Notes under the pieces: model-generated | Seen by the model: only the letters and a program-made list of their open reading frames with translations | Database searches by the model: none | Told to the model about the DNA's origin: nothing | Program-made: the position numbers and the translations under genes | Origin: an uncultured Bacilli bacterium | GTDB lineage: Bacteria > Bacillota_I > Bacilli_A > RF39 > UBA660 | Length of the DNA stretch: 64,000 nucleotides | Assembly: GCA_934086395.1 (NCBI GenBank) | Contig: CAKOIE010000001.1 | Coordinates: forward strand, 17,871-81,870 | Direction of reading: 5' to 3' | Part shown: positions 1 through 53,769 of the stretch, piece by piece | How positions within the stretch are numbered: position 1 is the stretch's first letter | Layout: each line of letters opens with the position of its first letter

Positions 1-480
1 TCGATTACTGTACTTACAATTAATGTACTATGCGTAAAATTACACATTTTATCATATAATTCAGTTAACATTGACAATTTTTCTTTACGGTTTATATCTT
101 TAAATGCTGGCTCACATATTTCATTCATATGTGTTCTAAACTTATCTATTATTTCACAAACTCTTGTCTTATCACGCTCTATTCCTAAAGTTGTAAATTC
201 ATTATATACATCTTCATCAAACTGAATCATCATTGCCATCATAATATATTCAAAAGAAGATCTTAATAATGTATTTGCATCCACTAAGTTATAACTTTTT
301 AAATTGTAATCTACATTTATTAAAGTTTTATGTGCTTGTTTTAATAAACTAATTGTTTCATGATGTTTAGTTCTTCTCTCATTTTCTAATTTTGATACAT
401 TATAAATACAACCATCTTTTAATGGTTTAATAAATTTTCTATTTATGGCATTATTAATAGTTTTATGTGATATTTGCATA
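1..480 (-). pseudogene. Frameshifted (or 5'-disrupted) hypothetical gene running off the left edge
   Basis: Hand translation of the minus strand. ATG at 480-478, with a GGTGGTGA SD (rc of 484-491), opens MQISHKTINNAINRKFIKPLK... but stops after 26 codons. A neighbouring frame is open from 419 to base 1 (KDGCIYNVSKLENERRTKHHETISLLKQAH...) with no convincing start of its own. The two frames meet at a T5 run (417-421; A5 on the coding strand). No family recognised. Confidence 0.45.
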
Positions 481-638
481 TTTTCACCACCTTAAAAAGT
501 TTAATATTTATTATATCACTATTATTTGATAAATTTAGCATTGATTAACATAAAAAGTATATATAGATAAATTAAAACTATATATACTTTTTAACATTTA
601 ATTTAAATATGTCAAATTTTTGCTATTTTTTTAACATG

Positions 639-705
639 TTATGACACTTATGACACTTGTTTCTAGGGGGTGCCATCATACATTTAAGTGACGTAAGTGA
701 CATAA
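639..705. repeat. Imperfect inverted repeat built from duplicated 9-mers around a 31-bp spacer
   Basis: Read directly: ttatgacacttatgacac (639-656) and gtgacgtaagtgacataa (688-705) are 15/18 complementary. The repeat lies between the McrC-like stop (716) and the next minus-strand start (480). Confidence 0.6.
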
Positions 706-715
706 GCAAAAGAAA

Positions 716-1825
716 TTACGTGTATAGTTCATTTAATTGATTGGCTTTTTCATTTGCTATATCTTTATCAATTATTTTTAACAAATCACATGTTATTTTT
801 CTCCAGTCTTGAGAAAGATCAATGGTATTAAATTGAATCTTTGCATCAATTGCCCCCATTTCTTGAGAGACAACTTTTACATCATATGATTCATATATAG
901 ACTCTCCATTAAATGGTAATGGATAAAGCAATATACCTTTTAAATCATTTGTGGCATTTACATTATTTAAATATGCCATCATTTGATACATATTACCACT
1001 AATTAAAGATTCTTTATCATAATTAGTTGTTAAATAATCTTTGTAATATTTAGTATCCAAAATAATTGTTTCTTCATTTGATTTAATAAATGTGTCCATT
1101 TTCATTATAGGTAGTAATGATTTGTTTCCACTACTTACATTCCAATTTAATTGACTTTGATATTTGACTTTGTATTTTTTCTTAGGAAGTTCCTGTTCAT
1201 AAAATTTATATACAAACAATTCAAATACATTATTCATATTCTCATCATTATCAAATAAATTGTAAAATGAATATTTTCCTGAAGATTCGCTTAACATTTG
1301 AGAATTATATATTAATTGGCATATTTTTATCATATAAAAATAATAATAGTTTGATTTATTAAAGATTATTTTATCAAATGAATATTTATCAATTTCCACA
1401 TAATCAACTTGATTAAAATATAATATTATTCTATTTAACTTTTTCTTATTATCTTTTGAAATATCGGTTGATTTATATAATCTAATTGCTATATATTTTA
1501 TTATTTGATTTAATAAATTGTTTTCAATCAGTTCATCATAATCACAATACACTTTTCCATATCTCAATGTTTGTTTATTAATTATAGATTGAATATCAAG
1601 CTTTCCTTTTACAGTGTTTAATTCTTCATTTTTTTCTATATACTCTTTATATAATCCTTTTTTTATTATTCTTTTAATATTAATTAAAAATAATTCAGCA
1701 TAAATATTTGATGAATCGAAGTCGTCTTCCGATGATAAATCAATAAAATCTTTATTATTTACTCTATCCCATATATAACTATACATGAATAAAACATTTT
1801 TAATTGGAACTTTAAATTTATTCAT
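716..1825 (-). CDS. mcrC: McrC-like restriction subunit (LlaJI R2-type), PD-(D/E)xK nuclease
   Basis: 369-aa ORF starting 9 nt after the McrB-like stop. McrC-family motifs seen by eye: VFELFVYKF, ...EETIILDTKYYKD (nuclease core) and NMYQMMAYL. Confidence 0.7.
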   Translation of the reverse strand: MNKFKVPIKNVLFMYSYIWDRVNNKDFIDLSSEDDFDSSNIYAELFLINIKRIIKKGLYKEYIEKNEELNTVKGKLDIQSIINKQTLRYGKVYCDYDELIENNLLNQIIKYIAIRLYKSTDISKDNKKKLNRIILYFNQVDYVEIDKYSFDKIIFNKSNYYYFYMIKICQLIYNSQMLSESSGKYSFYNLFDNDENMNNVFELFVYKFYEQELPKKKYKVKYQSQLNWNVSSGNKSLLPIMKMDTFIKSNEETIILDTKYYKDYLTTNYDKESLISGNMYQMMAYLNNVNATNDLKGILLYPLPFNGESIYESYDVKVVSQEMGAIDAKIQFNTIDLSQDWRKITCDLLKIIDKDIANEKANQLNELYT

Positions 1826-1834
1826 AATGGCCTT

Positions 1835-3982
1835 CTATAGCATTTGTTTATAATCTGCTATTTTTGTATCATCATCAAACCAATATTCTTCCAATAAAGG
1901 AATAATTTCATAATCAATAATATCTTTGTATGATTGTGTAAAATTATTGCTATCTAAATTATCAACAAAATAGCTATGTCCTATTTCAAAGCCTTCACCT
2001 AAATCGTCATCTATAGCTTCATTTAATGCAATCATTTTATTACATAAAAGATTAACATCATTTTCCTTAATATTATTCTTTTCAATTAACCAATTAGAGA
2101 ACTTTGGATTATTAAATGCTGGATTTACTTGAATAAACGCAAATCTTCTTCTTAAAGCATAATCTACCATTGCAAGTGATCTATCAGCTGTATTCATAGT
2201 ACCAATAATAAAAATATTTTCAGGAATTGTAAATGATTCTTTTGAATATGGAAGTATTACATCTTCTTTATCCCTCTTATCATATTCTATTAATTTCATT
2301 AGTTCGCCCAAAATTTTGCTTAGATTACCTCTATTAATTTCATCAATTATTACAAAATAATCTTTATCTCTATTGTTTTTAGCTACATCTACAAACTCTT
2401 TAAATACACCAGGAGTTAATACAAACTTTCCATCTTTATTTGGTCTAATACCTTCTATAAAATCCTCATAAGAATAACTTTGATGGAATTGTACAGATAA
2501 CACTTGATCTTTTGCTTTCTTTCCAATTATGGAATATGCAAGTCTTCTAGCCATAAATGTTTTTCCAACACCAGGTGATCCTTTTAAAATAATATTCTTC
2601 TTTCTCATTAATAATTTATATATTTTTTCATATTCGGAATCATTCATAAAAACTTCTTCCAAAAATAAATCTTTATCATAATAATTTTTTAAAAATTCAA
2701 TATAGTGATTTAATGCTGCAGAATTAATGTTATTGGAATTTTGAGATCTAGTTTTAAATTTTTCACTATTTATTATTATTGGAATATATTCTTCTAATTC
2801 CTTGTAATTATCAAATTCATATAATGATTTACTTAATAAACCATCTTCTTGAGATTCCTTAGACATTAAATCCACATGATTTAAATAGGCTGTTATGCTA
2901 CTCTCTTGAATTGATATATTTTCTAACCATTTTCTAAATTTATCCTTCATATTATAACTATCTCCTTCCATTATATTAATTAACTTCATAGCAAAATCAT
3001 CATATGGTGTAATATCAGTTAATGTTTTTTGAGCTACTCTTAAATTTTTAGGAATTTCCCAAACACCTTTTTTTATCCAATTTACGTTTCTTGTGTTTTT
3101 GAATCTTTCTCTATTGTTATTGTATAAATATTTGTTATCTATTACTCTTCCATATCCCAGCAACTTGGATTGCCCTATTTTAGCAATAACTATATCGCCT
3201 TCATGCAATTTATGTATAAAATCATCAATGCATGAAATATCATTATATGCATTTTCTTCGTTATATTTTTCTTTTAAAGCTGCTGCTATATGATCTCTAT
3301 CATTATAATAATTTATAGGTCCAATATCATCCCAACCTATAATCATTTGATTATTATCATAACAATAATCCCAATAGCTACCACCTTCTCCAGGCGAATA
3401 AGTCCAATATTGAGAATTTTTTGAAAATAAATAATCTATTTTTACCTTATCAATTATGCCATTTTTTAATACAGGATAAATAATATTAATATTTTCACCT
3501 TTTTCTATAATTATGTCTCCTAAAAGAGCTATTACAACACCTCTAAATTTTTTTACATTTTCATTAGCTTTTTCAAATTTTATGTTTAATCTATTGCCAC
3601 TATCGACTTGAACATTTGGTTTACCCAAACTAAAATTTTCAATATCAGTAAAATAAACTCCTCTATTGATAAAATAATCTTGTAAATCATCATGAAAATC
3701 TGATAATGAAAACATTTTAACAACTTGATTCATTTTTTCAATATATGATCTTGTTTTAACTACATCCACAACAAATTCATCATTATCAGGATTTAGAAAT
3801 TCTATCATTTCATTTATAGTATCAGGATTGGTTGCTAAAAAATATCCAGCAGTTGAACTTGGGCTTACTTCGCCATTTTTTGTTAATGAATTATACTTAA
3901 AAATATTAGATCGAGTTGACTCAGTATTGCTTAAAACAATTCTAATTTTATTATTTTCCAAAAATCCAGCCACACATAACAC
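1835..3982 (-). CDS. mcrB: McrB-like AAA+ GTPase restriction subunit (LlaJI R1-type) with a long N-terminal extension
   Basis: 715 aa. The C-terminal module has GSPGVGKTF (Walker A), VIIDEINRGN, IIGTMNTADRS and LRRRFAF, which are McrB signatures. The N-terminal ~450 aa includes a W/G-rich beta-type segment (YWTYSPGEGGSYWDY..IIGWDDIG..EGDIVIAKIG..LLGYGRVI..RNVNWIKKG). Confidence 0.75.
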   Translation of the reverse strand: MLCVAGFLENNKIRIVLSNTESTRSNIFKYNSLTKNGEVSPSSTAGYFLATNPDTINEMIEFLNPDNDEFVVDVVKTRSYIEKMNQVVKMFSLSDFHDDLQDYFINRGVYFTDIENFSLGKPNVQVDSGNRLNIKFEKANENVKKFRGVVIALLGDIIIEKGENINIIYPVLKNGIIDKVKIDYLFSKNSQYWTYSPGEGGSYWDYCYDNNQMIIGWDDIGPINYYNDRDHIAAALKEKYNEENAYNDISCIDDFIHKLHEGDIVIAKIGQSKLLGYGRVIDNKYLYNNNRERFKNTRNVNWIKKGVWEIPKNLRVAQKTLTDITPYDDFAMKLINIMEGDSYNMKDKFRKWLENISIQESSITAYLNHVDLMSKESQEDGLLSKSLYEFDNYKELEEYIPIIINSEKFKTRSQNSNNINSAALNHYIEFLKNYYDKDLFLEEVFMNDSEYEKIYKLLMRKKNIILKGSPGVGKTFMARRLAYSIIGKKAKDQVLSVQFHQSYSYEDFIEGIRPNKDGKFVLTPGVFKEFVDVAKNNRDKDYFVIIDEINRGNLSKILGELMKLIEYDKRDKEDVILPYSKESFTIPENIFIIGTMNTADRSLAMVDYALRRRFAFIQVNPAFNNPKFSNWLIEKNNIKENDVNLLCNKMIALNEAIDDDLGEGFEIGHSYFVDNLDSNNFTQSYKDIIDYEIIPLLEEYWFDDDTKIADYKQML

Positions 3983-4048
3983 CTCTCATCATTTTTATTA
4001 TACCAAAAATTAAAAATTTACGCTACATAAGTAGCAAAAAAAGAAGAA

Positions 4049-6421
4049 TTATGATAATTCTTCTTCTACATTTGTTATATTAGATAAATCTATATTATAT
4101 TCTTCTTGTTCTATTGAAAGATTGGATAAAGTAATATTATTATCAAAAACGCCTGTTTTAAAAATTTCTCTGACTACCGCAAGCATAACATCAACTACTA
4201 TACTATTACCAGCTTGTTTATACATTTGTGCTCGTGATACAACAATTTTAAAGTTGTCCGAATATCCCATAAGCCTCAAGGCTTCTCTTTCAGTAAGCAT
4301 TCTTAGCTTATCTTCTCCACCTTTATCAGTCATATAATTGTCAACACCAGCTCTATGCCTATTTCCCATTGTTGATAAGATAGTCCTTGCTACATCTAAA
4401 TCATACTTAATTGATGTTCTAAATGTTTTTGTTCCTGGAGTTAATACATATTTTCTAACCAAATCAGATAATACATATTTATCATCAACTCTTGAAGGAT
4501 CAAACTCGGACTCTTTAATTGAAATATTACCACATTCATCATATTGAAAATTACCAAATTCGCATTTTGATTCTAAAAATTGTTTCATACTAAATTTTAG
4601 TTCTATTGGTAATGGATATTCAAAATTTTTCTTTATATCTAAATCATTTCTAATGCCAACAACAAAAACTCTTCTTCTATTTTGTGGTATTCCATAATCA
4701 GCCGCATTTAATATTTGAGGTTCGGTAATATTATAATTTAAAGATTTAAAAATCCCTTTTATAATTTCCCATGTATTTCCATGATCATGTGTAGTCAATC
4801 CTCGAACATTTTCATATATAAATACTTTTGGATTTGCTTCTTTAATAATCCTTGCATATTCATAGAATAATGTACCTCTTGCATCTTCAAGGCCTCCTTT
4901 AAAGCCTACTGTTGAAAATGATTGACACGGACTTCCACCTACTAATAAATCAACTTTATCTTTATAATCAGTACCATCTAATAAGTTTATATCTAAATGA
5001 AAATCATCTTCAATTATTTTATCTCCATAATTTTCCATATAACTTTGTTTTACATAATTTTTCTTTTTGCTTTTAGAAGCATATAAATCATCTACATATT
5101 TTTTCTTTTCTAATTTGGAATTCATATTTTTTATTTTTTTAAATTCTTTTTCATGGTCATATTTAATTTCAATATCTCCATTATCACATGCAAAAACAAT
5201 TTCATATGGTGTATTATTTCTTATGAGTGCTTGTTCAATTGCACCTATACCACTGAATAATGTAGCTAGTTTTAGCTTAGGTTTTATAACATCAACTGCT
5301 TTTAATTCTTCGGTTTTAAATACGCCTGTATCTATTAGGTTTGGAATAATTTTTTCAAATATATTAACAACAATACTATTACCAGCTTGTCTATATTTAT
5401 CTTTATCTAACATTCCTTTGGGAAATTTAAATTTTTTTGAAAATCCCATAAGATTTGTACATTCTAATGGAGTTAGTTTTCTACAGGCGCCTTTTTTACC
5501 ATTATAAGTAGAAATATATGCAATATTCATAATATCAGCATTATCTTTTATTTTTTCATATGGAACAAACACAAATTCTCCATTCCAATTAAATTGTTGA
5601 TTTGCTTTTTGACATTGCATTATATTAGAATTAACTTGTGCTCTATTTTTATATTTTGGATTAGTAACAAATTCAAAACCTTTTTTACCCAAATAATACT
5701 TTGGATCAACTTTTAAGTCATCTTCCAAATAATCTTTAACTGTAGTTTTTAATTCTTCTTCTTCAGGAAATTTGAATGGAGCTGTATCTAAATCATTTCT
5801 TATACCTATAACGAATAGCCTAGGTCTATTTTGTGGTATTCCAAAATCTTTAGCATTTAATATAGGATTTTTTCTTATATATATTTTATAATTTAATTCT
5901 TTAAATGTATTTTGAACGGTTTCCCATGTTCTACCTTTATCATGATTTAGCATTCCTTTAACATTTTCAAATATAAAAGCCTTTGGTTGACATTCTTTAA
6001 TAATCCTTGCATATTCATAGAATAATGTACCTCTTGTATCATTAAATCCTCCACGTTTTCCAATTATTGAAAATGATTGGCATGGACTTCCACCTACTAG
6101 CAAATCGACTTCACCCTTATACATAGATCCATCTAAAAATCTTATATCTTGATAGAAATCTTTATCATCGATTTCATAATTTTCCTTATATGTTTGATAC
6201 ATACAATTAGGTTTTTTTAATGAACTATATAAATCATTAATATATTTATTTTTTTCTTCTAAAGACATATTTTCTATTTTTTTTAAAATTTCTTCTTTCG
6301 AATAAGGTAATTCTCTCTCACCATTATCACATGCAAAAATTATTTTATGTTTAACATCTAATTTTTCTAACGCTTGTTCAATTGCACCTATACCACTAAA
6401 TAGCGTTGCTAATTTTATCAT
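4049..6421 (-). CDS. Fused tandem DNA (cytosine-5) methyltransferase: two complete Dcm-type modules in one 790-aa polypeptide
   Basis: Each half carries the full ordered motif set: LFSGIGA (I), GGSPCQSFS (IV), ENVKGM/ENVRGL (VI), QNRPR/QNRRR (VIII) and AGNSIVV (X). The second module starts near KLKLATLFSGIGAIEQAL. Confidence 0.85.
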   Translation of the reverse strand: MIKLATLFSGIGAIEQALEKLDVKHKIIFACDNGERELPYSKEEILKKIENMSLEEKNKYINDLYSSLKKPNCMYQTYKENYEIDDKDFYQDIRFLDGSMYKGEVDLLVGGSPCQSFSIIGKRGGFNDTRGTLFYEYARIIKECQPKAFIFENVKGMLNHDKGRTWETVQNTFKELNYKIYIRKNPILNAKDFGIPQNRPRLFVIGIRNDLDTAPFKFPEEEELKTTVKDYLEDDLKVDPKYYLGKKGFEFVTNPKYKNRAQVNSNIMQCQKANQQFNWNGEFVFVPYEKIKDNADIMNIAYISTYNGKKGACRKLTPLECTNLMGFSKKFKFPKGMLDKDKYRQAGNSIVVNIFEKIIPNLIDTGVFKTEELKAVDVIKPKLKLATLFSGIGAIEQALIRNNTPYEIVFACDNGDIEIKYDHEKEFKKIKNMNSKLEKKKYVDDLYASKSKKKNYVKQSYMENYGDKIIEDDFHLDINLLDGTDYKDKVDLLVGGSPCQSFSTVGFKGGLEDARGTLFYEYARIIKEANPKVFIYENVRGLTTHDHGNTWEIIKGIFKSLNYNITEPQILNAADYGIPQNRRRVFVVGIRNDLDIKKNFEYPLPIELKFSMKQFLESKCEFGNFQYDECGNISIKESEFDPSRVDDKYVLSDLVRKYVLTPGTKTFRTSIKYDLDVARTILSTMGNRHRAGVDNYMTDKGGEDKLRMLTEREALRLMGYSDNFKIVVSRAQMYKQAGNSIVVDVMLAVVREIFKTGVFDNNITLSNLSIEQEEYNIDLSNITNVEEELS

Positions 6422-6713
6422 ATTATTACCTCATTTCTATTTTCTTTATAAATTAATTATACAAAATAATAACTAATTTAGATACATTTTTCTTCTGTTT
6501 TTTGTAAAAAAACATCAGAGTATAAAATAAGGAAATTTAATTTTCTTATTTAATTATTCTATTTTGGTAATTTACTATAATCATATTTTTATAAATTACA
6601 TCGAGTTCACTATTTATTTCATCAATATCTTTTAAAAATTCATCTAGTGAATATTTATCACCTCAATACTGATGTTACTACTAATACACTGTAATACTTA
6701 CTGTTTCTGAACC

Positions 6714-6744
6714 AACAAAAAGAAAACATACCAGTTAAGGTATG
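6714..6744 (-). terminator. Intrinsic terminator after the DnaA-like/Pol-like cassette
   Basis: On the minus strand: CATACC-TTAACT-GGTATG hairpin (6727-6744) followed by TTTTCTTTTT. Confidence 0.6.
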
Positions 6745-6782
6745 ATTCTAATGATTTCATTATTTATTTTTTAATATATCTA

Positions 6783-7457
6783 TTACTTCTTGCAAAGAAT
6801 GTGGGGTTTTCTAGTCAAGCAATAATAGGCCCTTATTCTGTATATCATATTTTTTAATTCTCTAAAATCTAAAGAGTTATCAGCAATATATCTCTTTAAT
6901 TCATTAAAGAATATTTTCTGCTCTGGAAGACTTAATTCTTCTTTTATAATCTCATTAACAAAATTTAATTTTGTCCTATTATCAGGCATTTCTATTTTCA
7001 CTTTAAATGATTCCTCCAGCGTTTTTTTTAATTGTTCACTTACTTTTAAATCACCAAGAGCAACATTGGATGATAGAATAACAACTTTGCTGTTTTTTAA
7101 TAAAATATTTAACAATTTTTCAAATTCATACATACTATTACCTGTAAAATATTGAATATCATCTACTATTAAAACTTCAGTATTTGAATATTTTTCAAGA
7201 AAATTAACTCTTTTATTCAAATCAATAACATCTTTGATAAATTCTTCACTTGTTATATATAGGACTGATTTGTTATTTTTCAAACCATTAGCTATTATAT
7301 TTAATAAATGTGTTTTCCCAATCGCCTTATTACCATAAAACATTATTAACTTATTTGATATACTTCCTTCAATGATTTTTAATGCTACATCATATGCTTC
7401 CTTATTTTCTTCATAAACTATAAAATTTTTTAATTCATAACATTCTTTCTTTACCAT
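6783..7457 (-). CDS. DnaA domain-III-only AAA+ ATPase paralogue (no domain I or domain IV)
   Basis: Aligns by eye with the host DnaA in this window: [25 protein letters not shown] vs [37 protein letters not shown] vs DVLIIDDIQFLSG; VVILSSN vs [15 protein letters not shown] vs VRQLEGAI. Start moved to ATG 7457 (M14 of the track ORF), which follows AAGGAG overlapping the upstream TAA. Confidence 0.7.
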   Translation of the reverse strand: [224 protein letters not shown]

Positions 7458-7467
7458 AAAATTCTCC

Positions 7468-8502
7468 TTACTTTTCAACGTAATAATTTCTTTCATCTAT
7501 TGCAAATAAGCATTCACTTACTGCTTGACCTCTACCAAATATATATAAGATTTTTGATAGTACATCTATAAACACATCATCACAACCATGTTCTATCATA
7601 ATATCAACATATCTTTGCCACAATTCATTTGACTTCCTCGTTCTTGATTTGTGTAATTGCTTAACAATATCTATAGCAACTTCATGTTCAATTGAATGAT
7701 TAACTAAATACTCATATACATCTTCACGATTAGAAATTACGTTATGTATATCAATCTTGCTATCTTTAAATAATTCTTCCTGATTTTTACTCCACACATG
7801 GGTGCCATGTGCTAAAGATATAACTTTAACATAGTCATCTATTGTTTTTGGTTTTAACTGCATTGCAACTTCTTTTTCAAATTCAGTATGCATTGAATAT
7901 TTTAGATCAACTTTCTTTTCTTGTATCAAAGGTTTATCATCGAGTCTAATTGTTATATACTCATCAGTAAACATATGATAATCTTCTATGGTTTCAAACT
8001 GACCAAACTCATTCAATCTAAATGACATATTGGTAGGTTGTACATAACATGGAATAAGTAAATAATGCTTATCTGCTAATTCATTTATTTCATCTACATC
8101 ACATAGTTCAAATGAACCTCTAACTATTCTAAAATTTCTTGCATACTTTTCTACTGAACTAACAAAGTCTAAGGAACAGCCATTTATGAAATCAATACAT
8201 AAAGTTTTAGCTGTGATCAACTCATAAGGTAGATTATATTTGATAGGGTCAACTTTACTAATGTCTAGAACATGGAGTAGTAACAAGTTATTAGCCATCC
8301 CTCTAAAGTGGAAACTAACAGATTTCTCCGTCTTCTTGTACTTATGTAATAACTCTATAATAAATAACAATCCTTTATCATAAAGTAAATCTACTTCTTT
8401 CTTACATCTTGTTAGAATATCATCATCTTTAATCTTGTTAGCTAGCCATACAAGAAAGTAGTCTCTAGCGTCATCATTTAACTCTTCATATTTATTATAC
8501 AT
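7468..8502 (-). CDS. Miniature, degenerate C-family (Pol III alpha / PolC-like) polymerase-core homologue
   Basis: 344 aa with a strong SD (GAAAGGAGGG). By-eye matches to DnaE/PolC landmarks: FRGMANNLLLLHVLDISKVDPIKYNLPYE vs GRGSAAGSLVAY.L.IT.IDP..Y.LLFER; SLDF vs DxDF; AHGTHVWSKNQEEL..ISNREDVYEYL vs SHGTDVWLGNAQEL..IGCRDDIMVYL; FGRGQAVSECL vs FPKAHAAAYVL. No PHP, exonuclease, beta-binding or OB regions. Confidence 0.55.
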   Translation of the reverse strand: MYNKYEELNDDARDYFLVWLANKIKDDDILTRCKKEVDLLYDKGLLFIIELLHKYKKTEKSVSFHFRGMANNLLLLHVLDISKVDPIKYNLPYELITAKTLCIDFINGCSLDFVSSVEKYARNFRIVRGSFELCDVDEINELADKHYLLIPCYVQPTNMSFRLNEFGQFETIEDYHMFTDEYITIRLDDKPLIQEKKVDLKYSMHTEFEKEVAMQLKPKTIDDYVKVISLAHGTHVWSKNQEELFKDSKIDIHNVISNREDVYEYLVNHSIEHEVAIDIVKQLHKSRTRKSNELWQRYVDIMIEHGCDDVFIDVLSKILYIFGRGQAVSECLFAIDERNYYVEK

Positions 8503-8642
8503 ATCATCCCTCCTTTCAAAAATAGAATAGCATATTCAAAAATGTACATGTACTGATTTTGAATTAACATTTTTATTACTATTATTTTTTATTAATTTCT
8601 TACCACAAAACATCCTCTAATTACGCATAATTTTTAAAAATG

Positions 8643-8867
8643 TCGCCTAAAACTTATTTTATAAATTTCAAAACTTCACAAACCCTTTAATTTTGGACAT
8701 AAAAAAATGAGGGCACGGTTAAATGCTCTCTTCAGGGGGCGATTTAATAGAACGCCTCTGAATGTTATAAGTCAAGTAAATAAAGGGATTTATCAACTTG
8801 ATATATCGCCTAATTTTATATATTTTTACTATTTTTTAAACTTTTTGTCGCCTAAAATGTCGCCTAA
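8643..8867 (-). repeat. Four same-orientation copies of TTAGGCGA (plus strand TCGCCTAA) upstream of the cassette
   Basis: TCGCCTAA at 8643-8650, 8806-8813, 8848-8855 and 8860-8867. Three copies extend to TGTCGCCTAAA, and the last two are adjacent with a 12-bp period. Confidence 0.7.
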
Positions 8868-8920
8868 ATATATGTTATATACTCATATTATAAGTTTACT
8901 CTATAAATACATTATAACAC

Positions 8921-8939
8921 AAAAAGAGCATTACTGCTC
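8921..8939 (-). terminator. Weak intrinsic terminator after the 210-aa ORF
   Basis: Minus strand GAGCA-GTAA-TGCTC followed by TTTTT. The stem is only 5 bp. Confidence 0.35.
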
Positions 8940-8965
8940 ATTAAGTTAGTTTATCTATAAATATT

Positions 8966-9598
8966 CTATTTTTGTTTTTTATTAAATTTCCCAAAACCAT
9001 ATGCTTCACTTTGATAATTTCTATTAAACAATCTTTCAGAAAATTCATCTCCATATCTACTCATTTTATTCATCATATATTCTTTAAATCTAGCTGGATC
9101 ATATGAATCTATATTAAAATATTCTTCTTGTCTGTATAAATTAAAAAATAAATCTGTCATATCTAAATCTATTATTGTGTTTACACCATTTGCTAATGCT
9201 ACTTCTCCAACTCGTTTACAACAATCTTGAAAATGATATCCACTAATTACTAACTCATCTACATTTCCTAATTGTTCTAAAATATATTGTTCGTTTGGAT
9301 ATACAACATCATCTAATGATTTTTCACTTCCGTCTTGATTATATCCACTTGCTTGGTCAAAAGTAATGTCAGTATATACTATTTTATCATTTGACTGTGG
9401 TAAAATACCATAAATCTTTTTATCTGGATAAATTACATATACAATTTGATATCCATTATCTCTATATCTTTTTTGAATTGCTTGATTTAAAACATCTAAA
9501 GGTCTTCTAACACCAATTTCATCATAATATTCATTTCCTAAATCGAACGCTTTAGTGTACTCTTCAATTGGATATAAATATAAAAATACTTTATTCAT
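8966..9598 (-). CDS. Hypothetical protein (faint isochorismatase/cysteine-hydrolase-like segment)
   Basis: 210-aa ORF. LVISGYHFQDCCKRVGEVALANGVNTIIDLDMTD resembles the ..G...D.CV..T......G..V....D strand-helix of cysteine hydrolases. This is a weak, by-eye match only. Confidence 0.5.
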   Translation of the reverse strand: MNKVFLYLYPIEEYTKAFDLGNEYYDEIGVRRPLDVLNQAIQKRYRDNGYQIVYVIYPDKKIYGILPQSNDKIVYTDITFDQASGYNQDGSEKSLDDVVYPNEQYILEQLGNVDELVISGYHFQDCCKRVGEVALANGVNTIIDLDMTDLFFNLYRQEEYFNIDSYDPARFKEYMMNKMSRYGDEFSERLFNRNYQSEAYGFGKFNKKQK

Positions 9599-9671
9599 AA
9601 ATTCACCTACTTCAATTTAATATTATAAACATTAAAAATTTTACTTATTATTAATCCTACCTTCTGACAAC

Positions 9672-9971
9672 TTAATTTCTTTTTGGCAACTTTTTATAAT
9701 CATACTTATCCATAATTGGATTAAGTAATTCTTGTGCTTTATTTAATTCTTCTACTGCTTGTTCTAAAGTGTATTTACTTTTATTATCTTTAAGTAATTT
9801 TAAATGTTCTGCTACTTCAAATATTATAAATCCTGCTTCTCTTGCGTTTTATCTTTTATTAAAATCAAATTGTAATAAATCAGTTTCTGATTTTTTATAT
9901 TGTTCAATTAAGTCTTTTAAATCTTTACTGGATTTATTTGCATATTTATCTTTAGAAAAATAGAAAAGCAT
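9672..9971 (-). pseudogene. Small reading frame interrupted by one in-frame TAA
   Basis: Hand translation: ATG at 9971 gives MLFYFSKDKYANKSSKDLKDLIEQYKKSETDLLQFDFNKR, then TAA (9851-9849), then the same frame continues NAREAGFIIFEVAEHLKLLKDNKSKYTLEQAVEELNKAQELLNPIMDKYDYKKLPKRN to TAA at 9674-9672. Confidence 0.3.
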
Positions 9972-10295: not shown

Positions 10296-10904
10296 TTAAT
10301 TTTTTGTAATTTTTTTAAGTTCTTCATAGTATAGTGCTTCTGATACTGAAACATATGGTGCAACATATACTAGGGCAATACCAAATGTTAATGCACAAAG
10401 TAAATACCAACCAAAGAAACTTAACATAAATACGAAATAATCCCATTTATAACCATACATCATCTCTTTAGATTTTTTGATGCAAGCACCTGGTTCTTCT
10501 TCACCATCTATCATGATAAACATTGCTTGACTATATGATATAGCAGCTATAATACCTGGTATAACAAATAATAAAGACCAAAGACCAATAAAAATAGACA
10601 TTAATAATCCTAATAAGAATATTGGAACAAATTTAGAATAATGTTTAAATATTTCATCATAATCTACTTGTTCTTTTCTTACATATTTAAGAATAAATAC
10701 ATCTAAACCATATGATAAAGGCATTACTGCAAGTGAAAGCAAAGTTGAACACATTGTTCCTGCGAATGTATCTTGTAATACTTTTTCTGATATTACATTT
10801 ACAAAACCTAAAACAATCATAACAATTAACATTGGTTTTAAAATGGTCCATAGATTTCCTTCAATCATTTTTTTGGCATCATTTTTAATTTTTGCTCTAT
10901 TCAT
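10296..10904 (-). CDS. DUF975-like integral membrane protein
   Basis: 202 aa. The N-terminus MNRAKIKNDAKKMIEGNLW is typical of DUF975, and there are several hydrophobic spans. Confidence 0.6.
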   Translation of the reverse strand: MNRAKIKNDAKKMIEGNLWTILKPMLIVMIVLGFVNVISEKVLQDTFAGTMCSTLLSLAVMPLSYGLDVFILKYVRKEQVDYDEIFKHYSKFVPIFLLGLLMSIFIGLWSLLFVIPGIIAAISYSQAMFIMIDGEEEPGACIKKSKEMMYGYKWDYFVFMLSFFGWYLLCALTFGIALVYVAPYVSVSEALYYEELKKITKN

Positions 10905-10936
10905 TTATCTCAACTCCTTCTACTATAAATATATCA

Positions 10937-12925
10937 TTAATTTAGATTTTTTACACCCCTTATTATGTTTTTTTGAATAGGAAATTTATCTATTTCGTTA
11001 ATATGTTTGTTTAAAAAATTTAAAGAGTCTTCACTACATTTTTTTAATATTTTAAAATCCTTATTTAGATTAGCTATTTTAAAGACCATATCTCCACTTT
11101 GTTTTACACCAAATAAATCACCGGCTCCTCTTAATTCGAAGTCTTTTTCAGAAATGTAGAAGCCATCTTCACTTTCTTCTAATATTTTTAATCTTGGCGT
11201 GTCATAGTCGCTTATTAAAATACATTTTGATTCTATATCATTTCTACCTATACGTCCCCTTAACTGATGAAGGGTTGCCAAGCCGAATCTTTCGGCATTA
11301 AATATAACAATCATCGTAGCGTTACTAACATCTACTCCTATTTCAATGATGGTTGTTGATATTAAGATCTTAGTTTTATTTGATTTAAAATCATTCATTA
11401 TATTTTCTTTTTCTTCATTTTTTAATTTACCATGAAGAACACCTATAGGTACTTTACCATTAAGGGCTACATTTATTTTTTCATATAAATAATTAACACT
11501 TGCTAGTTTGGTATTTTCTTCTTCATTTTCGATTAGGGGACTAACTACATAGATTTGATGTCCTTTTTTAATTTCATCTAACATTTCATATAGAACTTCT
11601 TTAATTTCTGATGTTTTATATAATTTAGTAATTTTAGGTTTCCTATTTAATGGTTTGGTTTTAATTTCAGTTATGTCCATATCTTTAAAAATAGTTAAGG
11701 CTAAAGTTCTTGGAATTGGAGTTGCACTCATATAAAGTACGTCAACATTTTCTCCTTTGTTTTGAAGGTTCTTTCTTTGATTTACACCGAAGCGATGTTG
11801 TTCGTCGGTTACAACTAGTCCAATATTTTTAAATACGACATCATCATTTAAGACTGAATGAGTTGATAATAAAATATCTATTTGACCGTTTTTTAGATTT
11901 TCAATTATTTTATCACGATCTTTTTTAGTTGTTGAGCCAGTTAGTATTTCAATATTTAAGTCTGTTAAGATTTTTTTGATATTTTCATAGTGTTGTTTTA
12001 TTAATATTTCAGTTGGTGCCATTAGGACGCCTTGATAACCAGATAAATAATTCATGTAAAGAGCTAGAAAAGATATAATTGTTTTACCACTTCCAACATC
12101 ACCTAGAATTAATCTATTCATATGTTTTGGTGAGTTAAAATCATTTTTAATATCTTCTACGGCTTTTACTTGTGAATCAGTTAATTTAAATGGTAAACTT
12201 GATATTAAATTATCTAATTTTGAGGTATCAAATGTTTTTATATATGATGTTGTTGTTTTATCTTTTAAATATTTTAAATAATTTATTTTTAAAGTATATT
12301 CAAATAATTCTTCATATTTAAGACATATTTCAGCTTGTTTTAAATTATTAGTACTGGTTGGATTATGGATTTCTTTTATAGCGGTTAATTTATCTAATAA
12401 TGAATATTCTTTAATGTATTCTTCAGGTATTAGACTGGGAACATAGATATTTTTTTCTAATAAATTATTAATTATTTTATGAATATTTACTTGTTTTAGT
12501 CCTTGAGTTGTGTGATAAATTGGTTCTATTTCATCTTTAATTATTGGGGTTAATTTTATATCACTGGCTGTAAATGTGTTGGTCTTGACGTTATATTTTC
12601 CTATTACGGAAATATATTTATTTAATAACAGATGTTGTTTAATGAAGGGACGGTTAAAGATGGTAACGTTTATTAGTTTAGTACCAGTATTTAATCTGAA
12701 ACTTATTTTATTTAAATTTCTTTTAATATAGTATATTTTGGCATCGGATGCGACATATCCATTTATTAAAACTTCAGTGTTTTCTTCATAGTTATCTAGA
12801 GTGACTGGGTGATATAATTTATACTTATAGGGATAGTATGTGATTAAATCTTGGATGGTAAAGATGTTTAAATTTTGAAATAATTTTAAGGTTTTGGGAC
12901 CAATTCCTTTAATATCTTCTAACAT
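10937..12925 (-). CDS. recG: ATP-dependent DNA helicase RecG
   Basis: 662 aa. Contains GDVGSGKT, TDEQHRFG, SATPIPRTLA and QLRGRIGR, plus an N-terminal wedge/OB region. Confidence 0.9.
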   Translation of the reverse strand: MLEDIKGIGPKTLKLFQNLNIFTIQDLITYYPYKYKLYHPVTLDNYEENTEVLINGYVASDAKIYYIKRNLNKISFRLNTGTKLINVTIFNRPFIKQHLLLNKYISVIGKYNVKTNTFTASDIKLTPIIKDEIEPIYHTTQGLKQVNIHKIINNLLEKNIYVPSLIPEEYIKEYSLLDKLTAIKEIHNPTSTNNLKQAEICLKYEELFEYTLKINYLKYLKDKTTTSYIKTFDTSKLDNLISSLPFKLTDSQVKAVEDIKNDFNSPKHMNRLILGDVGSGKTIISFLALYMNYLSGYQGVLMAPTEILIKQHYENIKKILTDLNIEILTGSTTKKDRDKIIENLKNGQIDILLSTHSVLNDDVVFKNIGLVVTDEQHRFGVNQRKNLQNKGENVDVLYMSATPIPRTLALTIFKDMDITEIKTKPLNRKPKITKLYKTSEIKEVLYEMLDEIKKGHQIYVVSPLIENEEENTKLASVNYLYEKINVALNGKVPIGVLHGKLKNEEKENIMNDFKSNKTKILISTTIIEIGVDVSNATMIVIFNAERFGLATLHQLRGRIGRNDIESKCILISDYDTPRLKILEESEDGFYISEKDFELRGAGDLFGVKQSGDMVFKIANLNKDFKILKKCSEDSLNFLNKHINEIDKFPIQKNIIRGVKNLN

Positions 12926-20304: not shown

Positions 20305-20363
20305 CTTTTATTCTCCTTCCGCCATGATTTAAATTAAATCATAGAAATTCGTTTTACTTCGAT

Positions 20364-21544: not shown

Positions 21545-21662
21545 AAAACTCTTGAAAGAGTTAGTAATAAATCTCTTTCATCGATATTAGCATTACCACC
21601 TTGCCTTAAGTAGGTTGGTATGAGTTCTTAGAGCTAATTCTCTCCCTCATTCTTGATAAAAT
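21545..21662 (-). ncRNA. SAM-I (S-box) riboswitch with terminator, leader of metK
   Basis: The reverse complement reads UUAUCAAGAAUGAGGGAGAGAAUUAGCUCUAAGAACUCAUACCAACC..AAGGUGGUAAUGCUAAUAUCGAUGAAAGAGAU, matching S-box landmarks (UUAUCAAGA, GAGGGA, CAACC, AAGGUG.UAAU, GAAAGA). The terminator AACUCU-UUCA-AGAGUU plus U6 follows. Confidence 0.75.
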
Positions 21663-28940: not shown

Positions 28941-29022
28941 TGTAATCCCCCTTACGGGTTAGTATTATAGCATATTGCAAGAATAAATGCAACCATTTGT
29001 TTGTTAGTGTTATAAATTCGTA

Positions 29023-42991: not shown

Positions 42992-43166
42992 TTTTCCACA
43001 ATAATGTGTGGAAAAGTGGAAAACTTTTTAACAATGTGAATTTAAAATTGTTGAAATTGTGGATAAGTTGTTTACATTCCGATAAAATGGACTTATTTTT
43101 GTGGAAAAGTATGTGTATAACTATGTTTAAAAAAAATTTTTGTATTTTTTTCTTTATTTTTCCACA
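42992..43166. promoter_or_regulatory. oriC part 1: DnaA-box cluster upstream of dnaA
   Basis: TTTTCCACA at 42992-43000 and 43158-43166. TGTGGAAAA at 43007-15 and 43100-08. AGTGGAAAA at 43015-23. A perfect TGTGGATAA (rc TTATCCACA) at 43058-66. AT-rich tracts lie in between. Confidence 0.85.
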
Positions 43167-43215
43167 ATCGTGGTTTACAATAGGGGTAGCAAAAACGAAG
43201 TATCGGGGTGATGGT

Positions 43216-44598
43216 ATGGACAATGAACAATTATGGAATAAATTTTTAAAAGAAATTCAAATTAAGATACAACCATTTTCTTTTAATAGTTGGTTAAAAC
43301 CCACGAAATTACTAGGGATAAATGAAAATTCTTGTATTGTAGAGGTTGAGAGTGAGTTTCAAAAAACATTTCTTTCTAAGAACTATACTGACTTAATGAG
43401 TGAAGTTTTATATGGAATAACTAATGTTAATTATGATTTTGAATTTGTTCTTAAAAGTGAAAAACATAATGAAGAAATTATTAAAGAAGAGAAAAGCGTT
43501 GAAACAAAAAATCTTGGCAAATCCCTAGAAATAGAGCATAAAAAGTTAAATTCGAATTTAAAACCAGAGTATACTTTTGATAATTTTATTGTTGGAGATA
43601 CTAATAGATTTGCGACTGTTTCAGCTCAAGCGGTAGCAGAAAATCCGGGGAAAATATATAATCCTTTATTTATATATGGAAAGAGTGGTCTTGGTAAAAC
43701 CCATTTAATGCATGCGATAGGAAATCAGATTGTTAAAAATTCTGGGAAAGTTGTTTTATATGTAACTAGTAGTGAATTTATTGCAGACTTTACTGGAATG
43801 CTTAGAAAAGATAAGAATGTTGATAATTATGAGGTTATGAACAATTTTAAAGATAAATATCGTAACATTGATGTTCTTATTATAGATGATATTCAATTTT
43901 TATCGGGAGCTGATAAATCACAAGATGAATTTTTCCATACATTTACTGAATTATACGATTCAAATAAACAAATAATTATAAGTTCAGATAGATCGCCAGA
44001 TGATTTAAAATTATTGGAAGAACGTCTATTAACTAGATTTAGATGGGGTTTAACAGCGAATATTTATCCACCAGATTTTGAACTTAGATGTCAAATTCTT
44101 AGAAATAAGATGATGGGGCATGAGGTGGCGGAAATGGTTAGTGATAAAGTAATTGAATATATTGCTTCTAATTGTGATAATGACGTTAGACAATTAGAGG
44201 GAGCAATAACTAGATTGTATGCTTACGCTGCAATGATGAGACCACCAGAAATAAATGTTGAATTTGCAACAGAAGCACTTAAAGAATTTTTGGGCAAATC
44301 AATTTATATAACAAATAATATTCAAAGGATTCAAAGAGCTGTTGCTGAATATTTTAACTTAAGTGTTGAGGATTTAAAAAGTAAGAAGAGAAATGCGAAC
44401 ATAAATTATGCAAGACAAATTGCAATATATTTAAGCCAAACTACTACTGATGAGACTCTTGTTAAAATAGGACTTGAATTTGGAAATAGAGACCATTCAA
44501 CAGTTATACATGCATGTGATAAAATAGAAGAGGATATTAACACAAATGCGAAGTTAAAAGATGATATTGAGAACATAAAAAATAAAATTGTTAATTAA
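43216..44598 (+). CDS. dnaA: Chromosomal replication initiator DnaA
   Basis: Start taken at M71 of the track ORF (MDNEQLWNKFLKEIQ). Contains GKSGLGKTHL, LIIDDIQFL and a C-terminal HTH with DHSTVIHA. Confidence 0.92.
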   Translation: MDNEQLWNKFLKEIQIKIQPFSFNSWLKPTKLLGINENSCIVEVESEFQKTFLSKNYTDLMSEVLYGITNVNYDFEFVLKSEKHNEEIIKEEKSVETKNLGKSLEIEHKKLNSNLKPEYTFDNFIVGDTNRFATVSAQAVAENPGKIYNPLFIYGKSGLGKTHLMHAIGNQIVKNSGKVVLYVTSSEFIADFTGMLRKDKNVDNYEVMNNFKDKYRNIDVLIIDDIQFLSGADKSQDEFFHTFTELYDSNKQIIISSDRSPDDLKLLEERLLTRFRWGLTANIYPPDFELRCQILRNKMMGHEVAEMVSDKVIEYIASNCDNDVRQLEGAITRLYAYAAMMRPPEINVEFATEALKEFLGKSIYITNNIQRIQRAVAEYFNLSVEDLKSKKRNANINYARQIAIYLSQTTTDETLVKIGLEFGNRDHSTVIHACDKIEEDINTNAKLKDDIENIKNKIVN

Positions 44599-44713: not shown

Positions 44714-45829
44714 ATGAAATTAATAATTGAAAAAAATATTTTATTAGAAAGTTTAAGTAATGTTATTAGAGCAGTATCTCCAAGAAATATTATTCCTATA
44801 TTAAATGGAGTTATGTTTGATTTAAAAGAAGAAGGTTTATATTTAACTGCTAGTGATAGTGATCTTGTTATAAGAAAGTTTATTCCTAGTGATAAGATTA
44901 AATCAATTGAAGAGACAGGTAAAATTATTATTCAAAGTAAATACCTATTAGATATAATTAAGAAGATGCCTAATTCAGATATTAATATTGAAGTAATAGA
45001 TGGATTAAAGATAATAATTAGTACAGAGAATACAGTATATAATTTAAATTGTTTAAGTACTGAAGATTATCCTAATATAAATTTAGAAACTGTTAATAAC
45101 CCAATAGTTTTGAACAGTTCTATTTTAAAAGAGTTGTTTTCACAAACTTTATTTGCTATTTCAACTCAGGAATCTCGTCCATTATTAACTGGTTTAAATA
45201 TTAGAATTAATGGTAATGTGATGGAATGTGTTACGACTGATAGCTATAGACTTGCTAAGAAGACTATAGTTTTAGATGCTGATTATGGAACTCATGATAT
45301 TGTTGTTCCGGGAAAAAATATTCAAGAATTTGATAAGATATTAACTGATGAAGAGAATGTAAAGATTAATTTATTTAGTAATAAGTTATTATTTGAATAT
45401 AATGGTTATTTATTTCAAACTAGTTTGCTTAGTGGACAATATCCTAATACATCTAATTTAATACCAACAGATTTTGAGTATATATTAACTACTAATTTAG
45501 ATAATTTTTATAGCGCAATTGATAGAGCAGCGTTACTTACACAAAATAAAGATAAAAATTTAATTAATATGAAAACAGTAGGAAATGAACTTGTTATTAC
45601 TTCATTTGCTAGTGAAATTGGTAAATCTGAAGAAAGTGTTGCTATTTCTAAAAATAATGATAACGATATTACCATTTCTTATAGTGCTAAATATATGCTT
45701 GATGCATTAAAGACTTTAAAAGATGATGAGTTAATTATATTAATGAATGGTGATTCTAAACCAATAATTTTAAAAAATGCTAAGGATGAGAGTTTAATTC
45801 AGTTGATTTTACCAATAAAAACATATTAA
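44714..45829 (+). CDS. dnaN: DNA polymerase III beta sliding clamp
   Basis: 371 aa. Position after dnaA, with typical three-domain clamp sequence (..RPLLTGLNI.., ..LPIKTY end). Confidence 0.9.
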   Translation: MKLIIEKNILLESLSNVIRAVSPRNIIPILNGVMFDLKEEGLYLTASDSDLVIRKFIPSDKIKSIEETGKIIIQSKYLLDIIKKMPNSDINIEVIDGLKIIISTENTVYNLNCLSTEDYPNINLETVNNPIVLNSSILKELFSQTLFAISTQESRPLLTGLNIRINGNVMECVTTDSYRLAKKTIVLDADYGTHDIVVPGKNIQEFDKILTDEENVKINLFSNKLLFEYNGYLFQTSLLSGQYPNTSNLIPTDFEYILTTNLDNFYSAIDRAALLTQNKDKNLINMKTVGNELVITSFASEIGKSEESVAISKNNDNDITISYSAKYMLDALKTLKDDELIILMNGDSKPIILKNAKDESLIQLILPIKTY

Positions 45830-53533: not shown

Positions 53534-53669
53534 AATTTGTTCGATATTTAATTATTAATTCTTATATATTGTGTAGTAATTAATATGATTTTATTATTAT
53601 TTTAAATATTTTAAAAGTTTTCCACATTATTTTCTTGTTATCTATTAATTGTTGTGGTATATTATATTT

Positions 53670-53747
53670 GTGCAATGTGTATGTAATAACCTGGTCAGAT
53701 TAGGAATAAAGCAGCCATATTTACCTCTACGCATGTGCACTTTTTTT
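53670..53747 (+). ncRNA. ffs: Small (4.5S-type) signal recognition particle RNA
   Basis: CCUGGUCAGAUUAGGAAUAAAGCAGCC matches the SRP domain IV landmark (GGUCAGGUCCGGAAGGAAGCAGCC) with a GGAA loop. The closing helix pairs GUGCAAUGUGUAUG with ACGCAUGUGCAC, followed by U7. The upstream promoter is TTGTTA-17 nt-TATATT (53635-53663). Position is next to tadA/dnaX, as in Bacillus. Confidence 0.75.
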
Positions 53748-53769
53748 ATTTGAAAAGAGGTAGTTATTT

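Follow-up and report, generated by a model that had tools for sequence, protein, structure and literature searches.

A degenerate PolC core and a DnaA domain III protein in a probable integrative-element remnant of uncultured gut Bacilli

The stretch analysed here, a 64,000-nucleotide window of contig CAKOIE010000001.1 from an uncultured Bacilli bacterium (assembly GCA_934086395.1), contains a cassette of two minus-strand genes that encode single-domain derivatives of replication proteins. One product, which we named mini-PolC, is a 344-residue derivative of the DNA polymerase PolC; the other, named DnaA3, is a 224-residue AAA+ protein that comprises domain III of DnaA only. An earlier interpretation made from the letters of the DNA (the sequence-only reading) had proposed two open reading frames (ORFs) of these positions and lengths, and both were confirmed. 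Counted from its first in-frame ATG the second ORF would span 6783–7496 and encode 237 residues, but all DnaA3 homologues begin at Met14 (7457, MVKKE...), which gives the 224-residue form. The features of the cassette and its flanks are listed below, where L followed by a number designates a locus in another sequence.

7468–8502, minus strand: mini-PolC, 344-residue PolC-derived palm and fingers core
6783–7457, minus strand: DnaA3, 224-residue AAA+ protein, DnaA domain III only
7457–7472, minus strand: coupling junction, TAA stop of mini-PolC overlapping an AAGGAG Shine-Dalgarno sequence (TAAGGAGAATTTTATG)
6727–6744, minus strand: terminator-like hairpin CATACCTTAACTGGTATG followed by a T-run, downstream of DnaA3
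6651–8575, minus strand: element block of 1.9 kb, 95% DNA identity to the mini-PolC–DnaA3 segment of intact integrative elements
8551–8740, minus strand: left-end fragment of the element, 190 bp, 85% identical to L035 696–895
8640–8867, minus strand: direct repeats, four copies of TTAGGCGA(C/T)A(T/A), iteron- or operator-like, upstream of the cassette

At the coupling junction the ATG of DnaA3 follows AAGGAG by 7 nt. This junction is identical in all intact elements, which also carry the same terminator-like hairpin between DnaA3 and the integrase gene; the translational coupling and the dedicated terminator proposed earlier were thus both seen in the sequence. The G+C content is about 25% across the window, and the cassette is not distinct in composition.

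Profile and structure searches agreed in identifying the 344-residue protein as a relic of the PolC core. Residues 205–334 matched the NCBIfam PolC equivalog NF001688 (PolC 1159–1283) with an E value of 5.9e-23, the Pfam family DNA_pol3_finger scored 24.9 bits against a cut-off of 22, and residues 25–94 matched the N-terminal part of Pfam DNA_pol3_alpha, where the palm starts, with E 3e-4. The PolC chains 9qpc and 3f2b were found in the PDB with E 1e-13. Comparison of a 38-sequence mini-PolC family profile with three PolC sequences by hhalign aligned residues 1–344 with Staphylococcus aureus PolC 774–1282 at a probability of 99.4%. The AlphaFold2 model was predicted with high confidence (pLDDT 92, pTM 0.90), and Foldseek searches of the PDB and BFVD yielded significant matches to C-family polymerases only, the best being PolC (E 2e-11, TM 0.68–0.72). 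The model shows the Pol-beta-like palm and fingers fold that characterizes this family. Everything that precedes the palm in PolC (N-terminal domain, OB, PHP, Exo) or follows the fingers is absent, and a further 165 or so internal residues, including the thumb, are missing relative to PolC 774–1282. Three other hallmarks of C-family polymerases, namely the PHP domain, the thumb and the clamp/duplex-binding C-terminal domain, are accordingly lacking, and a Pfam scan gave no PHP, Exo or OB match. Domain scans and alignment hence agree with the original description of a protein a quarter the size of a replicase and devoid of PHP, Exo, clamp-binding and OB modules. Because the PolC-specific motifs HGTxVW and REDIxxYL are retained, and because the zinc-finger insert of PolC is still present in the family members P0181 and P0183, the protein descends from PolC and not from DnaE.

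To locate the active site, we re-anchored the PDxD strand by hand on a conserved DK and on intermediate sequences, as the hhalign placement was one residue off. The PolC strand GDKVPDIDLNF, in which the DK precedes the catalytic strand, corresponds to DKT(I/L)x(I/V)DFIN in the mini-PolC family, and the equivalent of PDIDLNF in the window protein is L101-C102-I103-D104-F105-I106-N107. The position of the first catalytic aspartate is therefore occupied by Cys102, and 87% of 115 family members carry Asn, Cys, Ser or Lys there. The second aspartate is represented by Asp104, a position that is acidic in 80% of the same 115 sequences. The strand KLDILGHDD, which bears the third aspartate in PolC, is deleted, since TIRLDDKPLIQ of the window protein aligns with PolC TIPVDDKEVMQ, about 26 residues past that strand, and the intermediate protein P0237 has EIRLDD at the TIPxDD position. 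Two motif assignments of the sequence-only reading had to be revised on these grounds: SLDF (110–113) had been taken as the catalytic loop and IRLDD as the third-aspartate strand. Mini-PolC does not possess the full set of three catalytic aspartates of C-family polymerases, and judging from its residues and its missing domains a working polymerase activity is very unlikely.

Other positions are under strong constraint. N71, N72, W237, N240, Q241 and D261 are invariant in the 115 sequences, and the motif YIFGRGQAVSEC (R324-G-Q-A-x-S-E-C), located at the position of the PolC nucleotide pocket, is nearly so; YIFGRGQAVSE stands here in place of PolC YMFPKAHAAAY. The residues that line this pocket, which takes up nucleotide or inhibitor, include Y1274, F1276 and Y1284 in Enterococcus faecium PolC (PMC12592400). 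The invariant residues together with the nearly invariant motif suggest that the mini-PolC fold may have been kept for some binding function.

The second protein proved to be DnaA domain III alone, as the sequence-only reading had held. It matched the DnaA model TIGR00362 with E 8e-32, covering only model positions 105–325 of 437, and Pfam Bac_DnaA with E 7.6e-22. The Hda (E 2.5e-14) and DnaI (E 3e-6) models both matched more weakly than the DnaA model, and the PHROG DnaC-like loader was found with E 3.9e-14. Across domain III, DnaA3 is 34% identical to the DnaA encoded in the window itself (43006–44598). Its predicted model (pLDDT 88) had domain III of Bacillus subtilis DnaA (8bv3, Foldseek E 6e-16) as its best structural match; DnaA domain III structures of B. 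subtilis, Aquifex and Thermotoga (E about 1e-15) ranked ahead of Hda (E 1e-9) and clamp-loader subunits, and DnaI was matched with E 5e-7. For both proteins of the cassette, the profile and Foldseek searches that had been put forward as a check thus returned significant relations, to PolC and to DnaA, respectively.

Alignment to the host DnaA bore out the reported motif pattern. Walker A (GKTHL), Walker B (VDDIQ) and the sensor II Arg (DFRELKN), the marks of an AAA+ domain III of DnaA, are retained, and both box VII arginines are replaced (LKKTLEESF vs LLTRFRWGL of the host DnaA). The sensor I Asp is changed to Asn, the box VII arginine finger is absent throughout the DnaA3 family, and domains I, II and the DNA-binding domain IV are missing. 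An Hda identity is contradicted by the absence of an arginine finger and of a QL[SD]LF-type clamp-binding motif, for which we inspected the N-terminus by eye. As to a helicase loader, L035/L036 and L143 have a DnaB_C gene adjoining the module, which is absent from the window, and DnaA3 lacks the N-terminal helicase-binding domain. DnaA3 is neither DnaA nor Hda, and probably no canonical DnaC/DnaI. From its motifs it probably still binds ATP and could accept the arginine finger of a neighbour, but would be unable to donate one. The family is narrow, with 19 clusters at ≥68% identity followed by ordinary DnaA at about 33%. Mini-PolC should not be annotated as a polymerase, nor DnaA3 as an initiator.

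The origin of the cassette became apparent from its DNA. The block 6651–8575 is 95% identical to L035 6887–8808 and L031 6883–8802, and equally so to L036 and L037. The gene order in these intact elements is a SIR2-Macro gene, small ORFs, genes for a single-stranded DNA-binding protein (SSB), PcfK and PcfJ, a 92-residue ORF, an XRE regulator, an optional gene for a 223-residue DnaB_C-only protein, mini-PolC and DnaA3, then the gene of a tyrosine integrase and a divergent HTH gene; from SSB to the integrase the genes form an operon-like array. In the window, the start codon of the integrase is the exact limit of homology on one side, and on the other side homology stops just past the upstream gene. 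The integrase side is replaced by an operon for an M.5mC methyltransferase and McrBC. The cassette does lie in an accessory region beside a restriction–modification operon, as had been stated. On the opposite side, the cassette is fused to the left-end fragment via a repeat of about 25 nt (TAATTCAAAATCAGTAC); since the intact element has a copy of this sequence at each of the two positions, about 6 kb were deleted between the repeats. Helicase, regulator and integrase genes are absent from the window copy. The left-end fragment (8551–8740) contains one TTAGGCGACA repeat and a conserved terminator-like GC-rich hairpin. The motif TTAGGCGA(C/T)A occurs five times in the window, compared with 0.59 expected, and tandem copies of TTAGGCGA are found where intact elements have their left end (L035 786–806; L036 155–175); these repeats may be operators or an origin. 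With near-identical DNA in recombinase-bearing elements and abrupt breaks of homology, there is little doubt in our view that 6651–8740 is what deletions have left of an integrative mobile element, one that is frequent among low-GC Bacilli of the gut known only from uncultured material. In the distant relatives L011 and L017, too, DNA with a mini-PolC gene is present downstream of recG and a DUF975 gene; this site is an insertion hotspot that the fossil cassette marks. No tRNA attachment site was found in the window, and its 64 kb contain no tRNA genes. Positions 8821–8879 resemble a second, diverged copy of the element left end. A plasmid derivation of 8576–8965 was considered and dropped, as blastn gave no match.

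The window copy shows several signs of decay. In DnaA3 a 1-nt deletion rewrites the last 12 or so codons relative to intact homologues, and in the sister lineage L050–L052, which is 98.4% identical over 8.7 kb, the gene is split by a separate 2-nt deletion into 69 and 153 codons. Mini-PolC differs between the window and L050 by 3 synonymous and 14 non-synonymous substitutions (pN/pS 1.08), compared with a dN/dS of 0.30–0.34 for both mini-PolC and DnaA3 against intact elements. This departure of mini-PolC from the selection seen against intact elements is suggestive only (binomial P of about 0.03, Fisher P 0.09). Truncated variants exist within the 90% identity cluster of the window protein, and the window arrangement with an identical mini-PolC recurs in at least 22 human-gut contigs. 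With helicase, regulator and integrase gone, DnaA3 frameshifted and mini-PolC apparently neutral, the window cassette is most likely a non-functional fossil. One suggestion of the sequence-only reading, that the cassette served as replication module in an integrated element now decayed, is supported by the 95% identity to intact elements, the deletion junctions, the frameshifts and the indications of relaxed selection.

Mini-PolC represents a larger family. We found more than 120 clusters at 90% identity, reaching down to 40% identity, with lengths of about 340–357 residues, all of them unnamed and derived from metagenome-assembled genomes of uncultured gut 'Bacilli/Tenericutes' (rabbit, mouse, human). 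A profile search of 1.8 billion representatives, with 1,470 hits in total, gave 42 clusters at E ≤1e-30, followed by two further groups: PolC-derived minis of 350–500 residues with active sites degenerate to varying degree, and proteins of about 650–760 residues composed of PHP, palm and fingers with intact aspartates. Among proteins of the latter make-up, the metagenomic P0221, P0210 and P0212 have intact PDxD and KxDILGHDD motifs but neither Exo and OB nor a C-terminal domain, and mobile elements may possess in them a minimal C-family polymerase that is still active. L005, L006, L007 and L013 each contain two diverged mini-PolC paralogues, about 40–45% identical to the window protein, which are directly adjacent in L007.

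The gene neighbourhoods of the family are rich in other replication-protein fragments. A DnaB_C-only protein of 209–293 residues adjoins mini-PolC in about nine independent lineages. Inspected by eye against what we take to be the DnaB motifs, the L143 helicase appears to retain Walker A, Walker B, SQLPR and the arginine finger. The DnaB_C-only proteins of L005 and L035, the two other sequences viewed in this manner, look degenerate: the former seems to lack the arginine-finger motif, and the latter has GMCKT as Walker A. Directly downstream of mini-PolC, DnaA-derived genes are found in three deep lineages, namely the window clade, L143/L144 and L053. In L143/L144, DnaB_C and mini-PolC are followed by a protein that combines a DnaD-like domain with a DnaA AAA+ module without box VII arginines (L143 9098–9908, stop-interrupted in two independent contigs), and in L053 by a DnaA_N-type protein (1885–2331). 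The pairing of the two genes that the sequence-only reading had pointed out held in part: a DnaA-derived partner recurs in the three lineages, and the exact DnaA-III-only partner is limited to one narrow clade (≥68% identity), most mini-PolC genes having other partners or none. We had at first regarded the pairing as non-conserved, when a tblastn search with DnaA3 found none in 25 loci; profile searches later detected the DnaA-derived neighbours elsewhere.

An XRE regulator lies directly upstream of mini-PolC in many loci, and serine or tyrosine recombinases are near it in most. A PolC-OB-like protein of 122–350 residues is encoded directly upstream of mini-PolC in 11 loci, and L002, L003, L008–L010, L013, L020, L023, L025 and L027 have it directly upstream or nearby; its profile matches only PolC OB domains in the PDB, marginally so (E 0.007 and 0.054), which suggests that the OB and palm–fingers parts of a captured PolC may survive as separate genes. 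L010 encodes a DnaG zinc-ribbon-only protein beside mini-PolC (9452–9730, E 9e-35), and L002 a 403-residue protein (10339–11550) in which DnaB_C is joined to a tail weakly similar to DnaA domain IV (Pfam E 0.03; PDB 1j1v E 0.87). Searches of phage and plasmid databases yielded only true PolC and DnaE genes, plus one divergent protein on the 189-kb plasmid p3 of Cetobacterium somerae. This 914-residue hypothetical protein (L045 3768–6512) matches mini-PolC 67–329 with 25% identity and is encoded about 6 kb upstream of a DnaB-like helicase gene in the same gene array; it may be a divergent plasmid C-family polymerase.

The chromosomal origin region is contained in the window at 29000–52200, where the cumulative GC skew turns at about 29–43 kb, and the relic cassette is situated about 35 kb away from it. 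A genuine dnaA (43006–44598; Pfam DnaA_N, Bac_DnaA, Bac_DnaA_C) and dnaN (44714–45829; Pfam) are followed by ORFs of the size and order expected for recF, gyrB and gyrA, and minus-strand ORFs of 619 and 450 codons (36.8–40 kb) stand at the expected places of mnmG and mnmE. Rfam searches at the gathering threshold located a SAM riboswitch (21575–21662, minus strand), a small SRP RNA (53659–53754, plus strand) and an L31 ribosomal-protein leader (20313–20344, minus strand). The operon at 716–6421 (minus strand) encodes a 790-residue protein that contains two C5-cytosine methyltransferase domains, both complete, and after it McrB (AAA_5) and McrC. The island extends further in sister contigs, where the next genes are for Fic, AAA_21 or a DUF6602–SMODS (CBASS-like) pair. 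Between DUF975 and the cassette lies an ORF of 210 codons (8966–9598, minus strand) with its own terminator-like hairpin (8939–8926), which occupies the same position in at least eight contigs and had no match in Pfam, NCBIfam, PHROGs or PADLOC. In L050, orf210 and DUF975 are replaced by a region upstream of the relic cassette (1–8600) that carries a resistance gene of the aminoglycoside nucleotidyltransferase type together with genes for an integrase, a Mob_Pre relaxase, an ABC-F protein and a zeta toxin. In L017, at the insertion hotspot that it shares with the window, the region downstream of recG (4414–9000) contains a Gabija-like pair by sequence (OLD-type ATPase, UvrD-type helicase), then a frameshifted mini-PolC and a methyltransferase.

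The biochemical role of the intact module we infer from its composition. Together with mini-PolC, the compact helicase of the DnaB type and the AAA+ protein derived from DnaA would form a replication-initiation or replisome-hijack module of the element. DnaA3 would act as a loader of the DnaC/DnaI type or as an initiator, and mini-PolC as a non-catalytic scaffold whose strongly conserved fingers surface might bind DNA or parts of the host replisome; the module would thereby help the element to start replication or to capture the host replisome. For this role taken by itself we see an even chance. The combined explanation, in which the locus is an integrative-element remnant, the intact module serves replication or hijack and the window copy is a fossil, is the best that we can offer and appears reasonably probable.

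Several observations weigh against it. Many mini-PolC genes are solitary between housekeeping genes or stand beside unrelated genes (L041–L044, L016, L018, L022), a position in which one would hardly expect a replication-module component. Among 2.9 million IMG/VR viral contigs there was no mini-PolC, only N-terminal palm matches to phage polymerases, so that there is no direct example of such a replication module in a phage. For the intact module we identified no origin, primase or initiator, and 15 loci of other lineages showed no consistent iterons next to it. The case for neutrality rests on few substitutions, as the window mini-PolC is identical in the at least 22 contigs. Finally, the DnaB_C motifs of L005 and L035, which look degenerate by eye, and the missing arginine finger of DnaA3 would suit poison subunits equally well.

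The latter point leads to the main rival, which we regard as rather unlikely: that the truncated proteins are dominant-negative mimics that arrest replication of the host or of rival elements. ATP-bound DnaA3 would cap DnaA filaments at oriC, DnaB_C-only proteins would spoil helicase hexamers, and mini-PolC would be a competitor of PolC at primer ends or for its partners, the purpose being growth arrest during transfer, addiction or exclusion. Such an assumption would account for the pattern in which trans-acting catalytic residues are lost and nucleotide-binding sites retained: the box VII arginines are T/E in window-clade DnaA3 and no Arg is present in L143 either, the catalytic triad of mini-PolC is incomplete, and, by eye, L005 DnaB_C seemingly lacks the arginine-finger motif and L035 has GMCKT in Walker A. 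The XRE regulator directly upstream in many loci and the existence of stand-alone copies fit as well. However, the motif set of the L143 helicase, complete by eye, suits a helicase that works, the genes are ordered much as in ordinary helicase/loader modules, and no toxin–antitoxin-like pairing or immunity gene is evident.

The sequence-only reading had also considered a replisome-mimicking defence or anti-defence module, in which replisome look-alikes would be decoys, sensing the replication proteins of phages or blocking them, or would provide the element with anti-defence factors. The surroundings seem to invite this idea, as the cassette lies in a defence island (M.5mC methyltransferase–McrBC, to which sister contigs add Fic, AAA_21 or a CBASS-type SMODS gene), a Gabija-like pair (by eye) neighbours the mini-PolC pseudogene of L017, L019 adjoins AbiE-like proteins (by eye), and the L145 element carries an Apyc1 anti-Pycsar gene. 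The island context is secondary, though, having arisen by deletion and accretion; the neighbours in intact elements are SSB, PcfJ/K, XRE and integrase genes, not defence genes, and the only defence-island context is also the one in which the genes are decaying. Neither PHROGs nor PADLOC had a match for mini-PolC, and DnaA3 gave only noise-level generic P-loop matches in PADLOC-DB (E about 2e-3), neither protein having a significant match to a defence-system model there. We found no positive evidence for this proposal and consider it improbable. Even less credit is due to the notion of ordinary pseudogene fragments of host polC and dnaA, or of chance ORFs, which is hardly tenable. Both proteins are partial relative to the full proteins and a genuine dnaA is present in the window, but more than 120 clusters of full-length homologues of about 344 residues, down to 40% identity and with a dN/dS of about 0.3, a compact fold predicted with confidence, the mere 34% identity of DnaA3 to the host DnaA and the family's own invariant motifs, which are absent from PolC, all speak against it.

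Returning to the integrative element and its module, we suggest, more tentatively and without leaning towards it, that such elements of gut Firmicutes carry a 'mini-replisome' of captured single domains, in which a dead PolC core would be a replisome organiser or replisome poison of a new kind. Its parts would be the PolC palm–fingers, the PolC OB domain, the DnaB C-terminal motor, DnaA domain III (sometimes DnaA_N or DnaD-like) and the DnaG zinc ribbon. If so, mini-PolC would be the first C-family polymerase to have been inactivated and given a non-catalytic role of its own, in analogy to ImuB of the Y family. Should it organise or block the replisome, it would illustrate the way in which host replication is seized by mobile elements of PolC-type bacteria, and would reveal which surface of PolC suffices for that contact, a matter of relevance because PolC is an antibiotic target. 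A compact, well-folded PolC derivative under purifying selection, without PHP and without an intact active site, is widespread in uncultured gut Bacilli; its interest is moderate to high for the family, while the functional importance at the window locus is low.

The family seems to be undescribed. C-family polymerases are held to possess a PHP domain and an intact active site in every case. Surveys of C-family polymerases recognise only PolC and DnaE1–3 (PMC12926913, PMC3919608); one describes the PHP domain as universal in the family (PMC12926913), and the other discarded fragments without an intact active site (PMC3919608). Our literature searches found neither a description of mini-PolC nor an inactivated C-family counterpart. 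With PolC itself (3F2B, 9QPC), mini-PolC has the palm and fingers fold in common (TM about 0.7), but it lacks HhH as well as the N-terminal, OB, PHP, Exo, thumb and clamp-binding parts, and is carried by mobile elements and not essential. ImuB-like dead polymerases likewise combine a polymerase fold lacking an intact active site with conservation in a multi-gene cassette, and by analogy these two properties point to a binding or adaptor role. These dead polymerases belong to the Y and B families, however, whereas mini-PolC belongs to the C family, and the mutasome partners of ImuB-like systems are missing. DnaA3 shares the initiator-clade AAA+ module plus lid with DnaA, Hda, DnaC and DnaI, and like the DnaC/DnaI loaders it is encoded beside a DnaB-family helicase in intact elements. 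The overall arrangement recalls the replication modules of phages and mobile elements of Firmicutes, for example that of SPP1, which comprises the organiser G38P, the loader G39P, the DnaB-type helicase G40P and the SSB G36P. In modules of this type a DnaB-type helicase, an AAA+ loader-like ATPase, SSB, an XRE regulator and a recombinase are arrayed in a similar manner; in the intact elements described here, the slot of the origin-binding organiser is instead filled by a PolC-derived protein.

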